Part shown: piece after piece, positions 6,409 to 9,115 of the stretch
How positions within the stretch are numbered: position 1 is the stretch's first letter
Layout: every line of letters starts with the position of its first letter
Assembly: GCA_021773275.1 (NCBI GenBank)
Contig: JAJFKJ010000030.1
Span: forward strand, 143,580-207,579
Length of the DNA: 64,000 nucleotides
Direction: 5' to 3'
From: Gammaproteobacteria bacterium
GTDB lineage: Bacteria; Pseudomonadota; Gammaproteobacteria; JABCZS01
Notes under the pieces: model-generated
Databases searched by the model: none
Seen by the model: the letters and a program-made list of their open reading frames with translations, nothing else
What the model was told of the DNA's origin: nothing
Made by a program: the position numbers and the translations under genes

Positions 6409-7758
6409 CTATTCAGCCTGCGCAACCTTCTCGCTTATCTGGTGCAAGACCTTGCAGTAGTTATCAATAATTTCTTGAATGCGCTCTTGTGTAAAATGCC
6501 GTTTGCGGTAGATCATCCGCGCTTGCAAACCTTCGTTGGTAGGCCAAATTTCAAGACGGAGTTTTACCATGCTGCCCCAGAATTTCTGGTTTTTAAATAA
6601 ATCCCAACGAAATGTATTTTTAATCTTGCTAAACAAGCCTTGGTCATCAGGATTGTAGAAGCCATAGTAATTCACAAACATAGTGGGCATATCAGGCTGG
6701 TGTTGCGCAAGAATAGGGTGCGTTGCAATGCTCGGGAAATGGCTCTGTTTAAAAGTTTGTTTTAAAACCCGTGCCAATGCTTGATAGTTTTCTGTGAACC
6801 CAGCATCCGGATGGTGAGAAAACGTTGGGTAGAGTTGCCCTGCAAAAAATCCTAGCATGTATCTAAAAGCCTTGAACTTACGATTTAGGTTCGGAATGGC
6901 CAGGGTCATGCTTTGTTGATTATTGTAGCTATGCAATGTGTACAATAAACAGGTTAGCAAATAGCCATACATTTGCATGCGATTATCCGCCAAGTAGGCT
7001 TCAATATTATCGCTTTGCTGTTTACCAATATTAAAATAGACCGTGCCAACATCATCTTCAGCAATCTGCGTATTTTCTGTGCTGCAAGGTAGTTTTGTAT
7101 GGGCTGCAGACTTTAGGGTTTCCTGCCAATATTCCATAAATGGCTGTAGCAGGCCTTCACGCATCGCCTGTTGTTCATAAAAAGCGTAGTGCGGGAAATC
7201 ATATTCTAAAATGGGTAGATCGGGTGCTTCATGATTAAGCAAGGCCATGTAGGCGGTAACAATATCTTGCAGAAAAACAATAACCCCAACACCATCGGTC
7301 ATGATGTGCGAAGCAACCACTAAAAAGGCAAATTCATTTGCATTGAGCTTAATAACGGCAACTTTTAGGAGCGGTAGTTGTGTGATATCAAAGCCAATAT
7401 TTTCATAGTGCTTGATAAGTTTATGGAAAGCAATTTCACCTTGCTCAGAAGGCAGATCAGACACGTCATGGTACTCAAGTGAAATTTTTGGGTCGTCTTC
7501 AATGATAGCGTGCATACCATCGGGGTAAACAGTCCGTAAATTAACATGACGACTTGCAGCTATCTTGACAGCCTGATCGATTTTATCAGGGTCCAGTGGA
7601 ACTTCTGTAATGTTCAGCAGCTTGACGTTAAAGCTGGATTTATCTGCCTCAAGTTGACTGAAGTTATATATTAGCTGTTCATTTAGTGTAAGAGCACGTT
7701 GTTTTTGCTCAGGCTGAAAGTGGCTTAGGATATGGCTGGCATTTTTCCAAGATAACAT
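6409..7758 (-). CDS. Free-standing condensation-domain (NRPS C-domain / PapA5-like acyltransferase superfamily) protein, 449 aa
   Basis: The reverse complement of 7756-7758 is ATG (MLSWKN..) and 6409-6411 is cta (stop on minus strand). The ORF track labels it '+', but the protein only translates from the minus strand. Contains SHIMTDGVGVIVFLQDIVTAY, a match to the HHxxxDGxS acyltransferase motif. Confidence 0.6.
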   Translation of the reverse strand: MLSWKNASHILSHFQPEQKQRALTLNEQLIYNFSQLEADKSSFNVKLLNITEVPLDPDKIDQAVKIAASRHVNLRTVYPDGMHAIIEDDPKISLEYHDVSDLPSEQGEIAFHKLIKHYENIGFDITQLPLLKVAVIKLNANEFAFLVVASHIMTDGVGVIVFLQDIVTAYMALLNHEAPDLPILEYDFPHYAFYEQQAMREGLLQPFMEYWQETLKSAAHTKLPCSTENTQIAEDDVGTVYFNIGKQQSDNIEAYLADNRMQMYGYLLTCLLYTLHSYNNQQSMTLAIPNLNRKFKAFRYMLGFFAGQLYPTFSHHPDAGFTENYQALARVLKQTFKQSHFPSIATHPILAQHQPDMPTMFVNYYGFYNPDDQGLFSKIKNTFRWDLFKNQKFWGSMVKLRLEIWPTNEGLQARMIYRKRHFTQERIQEIIDNYCKVLHQISEKVAQAE

Positions 7759-9115
7759 CGCTAGATTTACTCCTTATTTCACTTAAAATCATCTGCACTA
7801 TGTCTTTTAAAATAGTATGCTTGATTGGGCCTTTTGTAAATAAGCGCCATTGATTGTCTATATCTTTTGTAAAGAATATATGCAGCTCATGAAACTTAGC
7901 ATGGTTAAAATCAAAGCTAATAGACTGCAGCTCAATACCACTTTTCTTGGCTTTATTTGCATATTGTTTTGCCAGGAAAATAGAGGGTGTAATATTTACA
8001 TGGACTAAAATATGTTCAGGTGGCTTGATGGCCTGTTGAATGTTTTTAAGCAGATAGCCATAATGGCTCATAATATCTGGCTTAACATAAGTGCTAGCAG
8101 GCAATTTCAAAGACTGCATTAAGGCAGCAACATCTTGTTTAAAGTGGGGTAGCTGTGCTTCCATAATTAAGGACTGCGCCATAAAATGAGGCACCCTGGG
8201 TTTGCCATCAAAAAAATCTAAGCTGCTTTGGATGTTGTTAATTAAATGCGGAATCGCATAATTTTGTGTATTTATTTTTAAGATGGGGTCTTCCAGTAAA
8301 AATCGAAAAGTACTGCGTTGCTCCGGAAGGCGGCGACCATGACGGTTGTAGCGCAAACAGAATTCCTTGCTTCCCAGTAGTTCACGAATAGTGCGTGTTA
8401 TGGTTGCAAGTAGTGTCACTTCAAAACTGCTGCCTTGTATTTTTGCCATATTTTTTAAATCAGCTTCAAACTCCGCAGGCAAGACATAGTTTAGCTTCTG
8501 CGAAACAGCGCTGTCATCAAAAGCGTGATCAGGCACACTGAGTAGCTTGCTGCTTTGGTAGTAATTTTTTAATTCAGGCAAAAAGTTCGAAAAATCATTG
8601 TATATATCCGATGTGTGCTGAAAAATGGGCGCTGAAAATTTTTGTTCTGGCTTTGTGCCGCTTTGATAATGATTAAACCAGCTACTTAAAAACAGATAAT
8701 TAGCGATACCGTCAAGCAACATGTGCGGTGTTGCAAGGAGCAGAACATAATTACCGTCATATTTAATGATGTCCAAATGAATGTGTGGTGCTTTTTGCAG
8801 TAATGGAGATGCCAAAGCTTCTTGACGTAATTGCTCGAGTTCGTTTTGCGTTTGCACCTCACCTAGTATGCGTACGCATGCATCTTGTTTGGTGCAAGCT
8901 GCAGGGTCGCTAGTCATATGGCCTGGCATAGTGCTTAAGTTTACCCACAGTGTGTCAATTTCTTGCAGGGTAGCATGAAAGCTATCAATGAGTCTTTGCT
9001 CGTCTAGATCGGTGCCTAATTGTAATTGGCAGATAATATTATCTTGCTGTTGAGTAATGGATTGCTTGGCAACAAAAAACTGTTCCGTGTAATTTAAGGG
9101 TATTGTTGTAGTCAT
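7709..9115 (-). CDS. Second free-standing condensation-domain-like protein, 468 aa
   Basis: Contains LLLATPHMLLDGIANYLF (HxxxDG). Similar length and architecture to the downstream paralog; its 3' end overlaps the paralog's 5' end by 50 nt in a different frame. Confidence 0.6.
   Translation of the reverse strand: MTTTIPLNYTEQFFVAKQSITQQQDNIICQLQLGTDLDEQRLIDSFHATLQEIDTLWVNLSTMPGHMTSDPAACTKQDACVRILGEVQTQNELEQLRQEALASPLLQKAPHIHLDIIKYDGNYVLLLATPHMLLDGIANYLFLSSWFNHYQSGTKPEQKFSAPIFQHTSDIYNDFSNFLPELKNYYQSSKLLSVPDHAFDDSAVSQKLNYVLPAEFEADLKNMAKIQGSSFEVTLLATITRTIRELLGSKEFCLRYNRHGRRLPEQRSTFRFLLEDPILKINTQNYAIPHLINNIQSSLDFFDGKPRVPHFMAQSLIMEAQLPHFKQDVAALMQSLKLPASTYVKPDIMSHYGYLLKNIQQAIKPPEHILVHVNITPSIFLAKQYANKAKKSGIELQSISFDFNHAKFHELHIFFTKDIDNQWRLFTKGPIKHTILKDIVQMILSEIRSKSSDVILEKCQPYPKPLSA

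Follow-up and report, generated by a model that had tools for sequence, protein, structure and literature searches.

Stand-alone condensation (C) domain enzymes, among them VibH, SgcC5 and OaaC, form a small group that is still being characterised and that makes amide or ester bonds outside the assembly lines of nonribosomal peptide synthetases (NRPSs). VibH, the vibriobactin amide synthase (PDB 1L5A), joins a carrier-bound acyl group to a free amine, and is encoded with the vibriobactin biosynthesis genes under iron regulation. The gene for SgcC5 lies in a large biosynthetic gene cluster that also specifies a discrete adenylation domain and a peptidyl carrier protein (PCP), while among the free-standing HHxxxDG acyltransferases of actinobacteria, PapA2 and PapA1 act successively on one lipid. 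OaaC (PDB 12KH), a stand-alone C domain from gut Clostridia, condenses fatty acids bound to an acyl carrier protein (ACP) with free amines; it dimerises, and the C–C dimer, in which the second protomer is the occluding one, controls carrier access (PMC13310621). The FAA-type clade carries a (D/H)HxxxD(S/A) motif and adjoins its own adenylation domain and ACP (PMC13310621). The present analysis concerns two overlapping genes, B and A, in a stretch of 64,000 nucleotides (nt) from a gammaproteobacterium (assembly GCA_021773275.1, contig JAJFKJ010000030.1, positions 143,580–207,579). This whole stretch is referred to below as the window.

Both genes lie on the minus strand. The upstream member, gene B (nt 7709–9115), specifies a strongly diverged, condensation-domain-like protein of 468 amino acids (aa), and the downstream member, gene A (nt 6409–7758), a protein of 449 aa that reads as a full-length NRPS-type condensation domain, nearest to LCL-like elongation C domains. 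We lean, without strong conviction, towards the view that B and A form an operon of two free-standing, trans-acting (type II NRPS-like) C-domain enzymes, which would act on a carrier-bound thioester that another part of the genome provides.

Condensation-domain affinity of proteins A and B

Protein A matched the Pfam Condensation model (PF00668) with 142 bits (E = 3e-41; cut-off 30.6), residues 29–447 covering profile positions 13–439 of 456, and aligned over residues 22–447 with an ad hoc C-domain profile at an hhalign probability of 99.9%. It carries motifs C2 (RHVNLRTVY), C3 (SHIMTDG) and C5 (MLGFFAGQL). The active-site motif SHIMTDG (nt 7291–7311, minus strand; His151, Asp155 and Gly156 in the translation) falls in register with hHiisDG of the C-domain profile and with hhlvvDG of PvdL, that is, in the HHxxxDG column, and in the profile alignments the Arg of the segment before C5 is kept in both proteins (NLNRK in A, HGRR in B). 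Among structures in the PDB, 48 distinct sequences of C, epimerisation (E) and heterocyclisation (Cy) domains were matched, the best being PvdL, the peptide synthetase 8XJZ, bacitracin synthase 3 and TycC. The 30 best single-domain matches of A are all C domains, and none is of the E or post-E class; most of them are internal, with motifs of the HHIISDGWS type. A tblastn search of plasmids gave 22–24% identity to C domains, every one of them embedded in NRPS genes. By these matches, A can be placed without ambiguity as a full-length, canonical NRPS C domain, nearest to internal elongation (LCL-like) domains.

An earlier note on this DNA, made without database searches, had likened the two proteins both to NRPS C domains and to PapA5-like and wax ester synthase/diacylglycerol acyltransferase (WS/DGAT)-like enzymes. 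The first kinship stands, within the superfamily of NRPS condensation domains and chloramphenicol acetyltransferase (CAT)-like acyltransferases, but the second is not supported: A remains below the WS/DGAT cut-offs (PF03007, 14.8 bits against 23.6; TIGR02946, 15.9 against 310), B matches neither of these models, and PapA5 is not among the PDB matches of A at E ≤ 0.01. The OaaC structure 12KH was matched by A at E = 0.0085 with 18 bits only, and not at all by B, which places neither protein in the FAA-type clade. Since A is nearest to elongation C domains inside megasynthases, and not to the WS/DGAT, PapA5 or OaaC types, a carrier-bound donor is favoured.

Protein B is more distant. Set against PF00668, a check that the earlier note had proposed, it reached 24.4 bits over residues 26–264 only, falling short of the cut-off. 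The ad hoc C-domain profile aligned with residues 11–308 of B at an hhalign probability of 98.7% (E = 2e-16), and the alignment with C domains runs from the N lobe through motif C5. The motif PHMLLDG (nt 8708–8728, minus strand; His131, Asp135 and Gly136 in the translation) is in register with the HHxxxDG of the C profile (mhHiisDGwS), of TycC and of VibH; TycC (E = 0.003) and VibH (E = 0.008–0.03) were its sole matches in the PDB. The His of HxxxDG thus occupies the active-site column of the family in both proteins, and the two motifs picked out in the earlier note are not chance occurrences, given the PF00668 E-value of A and the register of both. An exhaustive hmmsearch of 1.84e9 representatives with a B profile returned its own cluster and 70 weak matches, and no further member of the B family. 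Nearly all of the weak matches (66 of 70) are 869–7340 aa long, which is the size of NRPS megasynthases, and the remaining four are 363–569 aa long. Because the search returned B's own cluster together with mostly NRPS-sized matches, B is judged to be homologous to C domains, its family being otherwise empty in that library. Both proteins are accordingly assigned on sequence to the NRPS condensation/CAT-like acyltransferase superfamily, strongly in the case of A and at profile level in that of B.

The divergence of B bears on an alternative in which A would be the sole catalyst, and B a catalytically silent scaffold or regulatory subunit, derived from a C domain, that gates carrier access or recruits the acceptor. 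Parallels for such a subunit would be the X domain found in glycopeptide NRPSs and, in the homodimer of OaaC, the second, occluding protomer. B is indeed far more diverged than A: the Pfam model gives it 24 bits against 142 for A, and the C profile 62 against 173. Its C-terminal 160 aa have no profile match, but in the two known orthologues they are conserved and count among the best-conserved parts of the protein. The conserved overlap of the genes and its internal Shine–Dalgarno (SD) sequence (see below) suggest coupled, stoichiometric synthesis, and dimerisation is documented for a stand-alone C domain, OaaC (PMC13310621). However, B keeps His131, Asp135 and Gly136 and, further downstream, the Arg of the 'xxGR' segment, all of them conserved in its orthologue, so that nothing marks the protein as inactive, and the structure models are of low confidence (mean predicted local distance difference test (pLDDT) score 33–38). 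A silent B is, in our judgement, unlikely, though a serious candidate. Examined by eye, the C terminus of B seems to follow the strand–turn–strand–helix pattern typical of the C terminus of C domains.

The earlier note also described the two proteins as paralogs, a description that is too close: BLASTP gave E = 0.009 over 35 residues around the motif, and the profile–profile comparison an hhalign probability of 2.8%. A and B are not close paralogues, their likeness being at the superfamily level only. For subclass assignment, profiles were built from 242 HxxxDG-centred domains cut from NRPS matches, namely 36 E domains (with EGHGR), 27 C domains placed immediately after an E domain (post-E, DCL-like) and 179 others. 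A scored 173 bits with the profile of other C domains, 93 bits with post-E C (DCL-like) and 85 bits with E; the corresponding scores of B were 62, 29 and 36 bits. These values were used to judge the idea that the pair is a split E–C didomain, with B as the E domain and A as the post-E DCL domain, which had been prompted by the sequence NRHGRR of B, found at the position of EGHGRE in E domains, and by the PvdL matches. The idea was rejected on the class-profile scores and on the 30 best matches of A, as both proteins score best with the non-E, non-post-E C profile, and the lower E and DCL scores place neither of them in those classes.

Operon structure and conservation of the pair

The two overlapping open reading frames (ORFs) reported earlier at nt 6409–9115 are confirmed as a free-standing tandem pair on the minus strand. 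Their overlap is exactly 50 nt (nt 7709–7758) and comprises the 3' end of B and the 5' end of A, the frame of A being +1 relative to that of B. A predicted ribosome-binding site for A, AGGAG (nt 7770–7774, minus strand), lies within the 3' end of B, 11 nt ahead of the ATG of A. Upstream of B, a sigma-70-type promoter-like site, TTAACA–18 nt–TATAAT (nt 9165–9194, minus strand), extends across the end of pgi and the pgi–B spacer; it agrees at 11 of 12 positions and is the top promoter match within nt 6000–13200. The plus strand of nt 6409–9115 holds no competing ORF of at least 100 aa. No Fur box was found upstream of B, the best matches (11/19 and 10/19) being at background level, and iron regulation of the pair was rejected on these grounds.

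In word-indexed searches of 5.8 billion clusters, A and B each had a single relative: P0002, with 76% identity to A, and P0004, with 61% identity to B. In the same collection a search with an A profile at E ≤ 10 gave nothing beyond A and its one relative. P0002 and P0004 are encoded on a single metagenome contig of the Joint Genome Institute (JGI), designated locus L001. The gene order panB-panC-panD-pgi-B-A is common to the window and L001, the B–A overlap is also 50 nt in L001 (10001–10050 of that locus), and AGGAG, the ATG of A and the TGA stop of B are all kept. A promoter-like TTACCA–18–TATAAT stands at the equivalent place in L001, with a spacer of diverged sequence. The orthologues carry the active-site motifs SHMVTDG (P0002) and PHMLFDG (P0004). 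That promoter, 50-nt overlap and internal SD are all kept in the sole related locus argues that B and A are co-expressed as a unit. They are best described as a putative two-gene operon with its own predicted promoter, that is, a conserved bicistronic unit, and the conservation of both the overlap and the internal SD suggests that synthesis of the two proteins is coupled.

Between the window and L001, the protein identities of A (76%) and B (61%) compare with 64% for pgi, 72% for panC, 78% for Aas, 84% for panD and 90% for panB. The proportions of nonsynonymous (pN) and synonymous (pS) differences are 0.15 and 0.79 for A (pN/pS about 0.18), and 0.23 and 0.78 for B (pN/pS about 0.29). For pgi, pN is 0.22 and pN/pS about 0.27, synonymous sites being saturated (pS ~0.8). 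As pS is saturated and pN is nonetheless low, A and B are under purifying selection comparable to that on housekeeping genes, with a constraint similar to that on pgi.

As the two ORFs overlap and B has diverged so far, it might still be asked whether an NRPS gene has decayed here and left a non-functional remnant, or whether a frameshift or an assembly error has split what is really one gene. Both ORFs are, however, intact in two genomes that differ at pS ~0.8 against pN 0.15–0.23; the overlap length, the ATG of A, AGGAG and the stop codon of B are all conserved; the B–A sequence is present in identical form in an independent Logan assembly; and a fusion of the frames would need a +1 shift. 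Such an origin is hardly credible, and a pseudogene or single frameshifted gene is effectively refuted by the conserved SD, ATG and stop codon together with purifying selection.

No further copy was detected when GTDB species genomes and JGI metagenome contigs were scanned with A or B. Four other panBCD-pgi loci (L007, L019, L045 and L053) have no C-domain gene and carry, after pgi, an ORF convergent with it, which, judged by eye from its N terminus, appears to be queG-like. As these distant panBCD-pgi loci are without C-domain genes, the pair is taken to have been added, in a restricted lineage, to the end of a gene block that is itself conserved. Recent horizontal transfer was rejected, the GC content and the GC content at third codon positions (GC3) of the pair being native. 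The adjoining pgi gene (nt 9181–10569, minus strand) has its best relatives at 42–45% identity, mostly in gammaproteobacterial metagenome-assembled genomes, among 185,579 GTDB species genomes (loci L003–L082). With pgi relatives at 42–45% at best, and the pair absent from the same genomes, the source lineage is evidently very poorly sampled.

Neighbouring genes and the search for partners

The rest of the window is of a housekeeping character. It includes tldD/pmbA, pgi, panBCD, dapB, gyrA, a serC-like gene, aroA, cmk, rpsA and lapB, as well as genes of the tricarboxylic acid cycle and the gltX-like and cysS tRNA synthetase genes. Neither the 64-kb window nor the 21 kb read of L001 yielded an NRPS or polyketide synthase (PKS) partner. 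An ad hoc hidden Markov model (HMM) of the thiolation domain, which recovered 65 of the NRPS controls, showed the window and L001 to be free of carrier domains in all frames (best E = 1.9), and no thioesterase or NRPS adenylation domain is present among the window ORFs of at least 150 aa. Within the window, the pair is not accompanied by the adenylation enzyme, carrier and release function that would mark an NRPS assembly line or a type II NRPS. The statement of the earlier note that adenylation, carrier-protein and thioesterase genes are lacking from the window therefore holds for carriers, thioesterases and adenylation domains of the NRPS type, but one AMP-binding domain is present, the sole one in the window, in an LplT-Aas fusion (nt 14231–17299).

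The fusion is part of a plus-strand segment (nt 14231–18512) that specifies a 1022-aa triple fusion of a major facilitator superfamily (LplT-like) domain, a PlsC-type acyltransferase and an AMP-binding (Aas-like) domain, and then a PylC-like ATP-grasp gene. The two genes are kept, and are adjacent, in L001. In relation to the pair, these lipid genes lie on the opposite strand at a distance of 5–8 kb, beyond pgi-panDCB. Upstream of LplT-Aas are three small overlapping orphan genes (nt 12680–14227, plus strand; 102, 269 and 158 aa) with 47–76% identity in L001; in the 269-aa product, an N-terminal methylation (pilin-like) motif is weakly matched (E = 0.05).

This setting gives rise to a further alternative, in which the genome has no NRPS and the two proteins serve primary or envelope metabolism as acyltransferases for lipids or metabolites, either independent of a carrier or dependent on the housekeeping ACP, and supplied with acyl-ACP from fatty-acid synthesis or from Aas, or with acyl-coenzyme A (CoA). 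In keeping with it, the pair is located within a housekeeping region, has native GC and GC3 and evolves at the rate of its housekeeping neighbours; LplT-Aas, with an AMP-binding domain of the acyl-ACP-synthetase type, is 5 kb off in both genomes; and OaaC exemplifies stand-alone C domains that use ACP-bound fatty-acyl donors. A, however, resembles peptide-elongation C domains and not the OaaC type, and scores under the WS/DGAT cut-off, while Aas is on the opposite strand with pgi-panDCB and three other genes between. The absence of the pair from related panBCD-pgi loci also argues that its function is not a core one. We consider this explanation improbable.

On the other side of the pair, a gene for a 1164-aa protein (nt 2897–6391, plus strand) is convergent with A, the stop codons being 17 nt apart. 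It is thus not upstream of the pair, which the earlier note had described as standing directly after it, and the co-occurrence proposed there was not borne out, as the gene is absent beside the pair in L001. The 1164-aa protein belongs to no Pfam, NCBIfam or PADLOC family. It contains an internal repeat of ~160 aa (aa ~458–612 against ~705–860; 30% identity, E = 3e-14) with a weaker third copy, and has two hydrophobic stretches near aa 150–215.

The earlier note had also raised the possibility that A and B are a secreted effector pair, which would acylate host molecules. The evidence that might favour this is circumstantial: the window encodes several large orphan proteins, the 1164-aa repeat protein being an example, and the lineage is poorly sampled. 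To the eye, however, neither N terminus shows a signal peptide, no secretion-system genes occur in the window, the 1164-aa neighbour is not conserved beside the pair, and the promoter of the operon is ordinary and housekeeping-like. An effector role is very unlikely. A role in anti-phage defence was likewise considered and set aside, as there was no PADLOC match.

Elsewhere in the window, a tRNA-Pro gene (nt 57584–57660) is directly followed by an AbiEi/AbiEii type IV toxin–antitoxin pair (nt 57812–59433), a DUF7790 gene and a 468-aa orphan. The GC content falls to 0.39–0.42 in this region (nt 57584–62424), which resembles a small genomic island integrated at the tRNA gene. Three more orphan ORFs, at nt 36937–39093 (minus strand), 55767–56327 (minus strand) and 56833–57549 (plus strand), specify proteins of 718, 186 and 238 aa, respectively, with no Pfam family at E ≤ 1.

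Proposed mode of action and comparison with described systems

If B and A are trans-acting C-domain enzymes, as we tentatively favour, they would work in the manner of the type II or non-modular NRPS components VibH, SgcC5 and OaaC. Each enzyme, or a complex of the two, would bind an acyl, aminoacyl or peptidyl thioester attached to the phosphopantetheine arm of a carrier encoded in another part of the genome, be it a dedicated protein or the ACP of fatty-acid synthesis. The elongation-type affinity of A favours a carrier-bound donor, and the carrier gene must then lie outside the window. The His of HxxxDG would position a nucleophile, either an amine or a hydroxyl, for attack on the thioester, and an amide or an ester would result. 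A would be the conventional catalyst. B, with His, Asp and Gly kept, would be its diverged partner and could carry out a second transfer or be the obligate partner subunit of A; if their synthesis is coupled, the proteins may form a complex or catalyse consecutive steps. The data show the gene structure, its conservation, the superfamily membership, the register of the catalytic motif and the local absence of partner genes; the fold, the dependence on a carrier, the joint action of A and B and any substrates are inferred, and the thioester chemistry is taken from that established for C domains and from VibH, SgcC5 and OaaC.

Several observations weigh against this proposal. Where HHxxxDG has its first His, A has Ser and B has Pro, and no C or E profile matches B over its last ~160 aa. 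AlphaFold2 models of both proteins, made from alignments of 2 sequences, have a low mean pLDDT (37.6 and 33.0). No carrier, NRPS adenylation domain, thioesterase or phosphopantetheinyl transferase (PPTase) gene was found within the 64 kb, nor in the ~10 kb on each side in L001, and the absence of a partner gene from these regions makes the required carrier hypothetical. Lastly, the adjacency of B and A is conserved in two genomes only, and may be explained by shared ancestry alone. A more far-reaching version, which we regard as speculative and doubtful, would make B–A an obligate heterodimer embedded in the primary metabolism of a little-sampled gammaproteobacterial lineage, in a genome with no NRPS. 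The housekeeping ACP, or CoA, would provide its acyl groups, from which it would form an amide- or ester-linked lipid or metabolite; B would then represent a new branch of the superfamily, seen nowhere else.

Enzymes of the stand-alone C-domain kind are already known, and the pair shows no new mechanism. What is unusual here is the heterotypic tandem arrangement, the extreme divergence and orphan status of B, and a housekeeping neighbourhood without a biosynthetic cluster. The pair adds to the group an example that is a sequence orphan and apparently translationally coupled. It is a candidate for biochemical characterisation and does not itself resolve an open question, although the known use of C domains outside NRPSs would be widened should the housekeeping ACP prove to be the carrier, or should A and B prove to form a heterodimer.

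Among described proteins, the internal LCL-type C domains, such as TycC C6 (PDB 2JGP) and those of PvdL, are the closest to A, which matches them over its full length and finds its best PDB and profile matches in this type. B aligns with this type from the N lobe through C5, TycC being its best PDB match. Unlike these domains, A and B are free-standing proteins of ~450 aa without flanking adenylation or thiolation domains, the identity to embedded C domains is only 22–24%, and the first His of the motif is substituted in both. VibH is among the PDB matches of both proteins but the similarity is weak (E = 1e-3 for A, and lower still in significance for B), and whereas VibH is a single, iron-regulated protein encoded with biosynthesis genes, the locus described here has a pair of proteins, no such cluster in the window and no Fur box. 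SgcC5 (PDB 4ZNM), a discrete C protein that acts in trans on a carrier-bound donor, is matched by A at E = 2.6e-8; its gene is clustered with those for an adenylation domain and a PCP, unlike the pair in this window. OaaC, too, is a C domain that stands free and belongs to a pathway whose proteins are discrete; its dimer provides a precedent for C–C contact. In contrast to OaaC and the FAA-type clade, the motifs of A and B end in DG, and neither an adenylation domain nor an ACP is adjacent. PapA1, PapA2, PapA5 and the WS/DGAT enzymes of actinobacteria are also free-standing HHxxxDG acyltransferases; they have no significant sequence affinity to A or B, but PapA2 and PapA1 provide a precedent for two such enzymes in one pathway.

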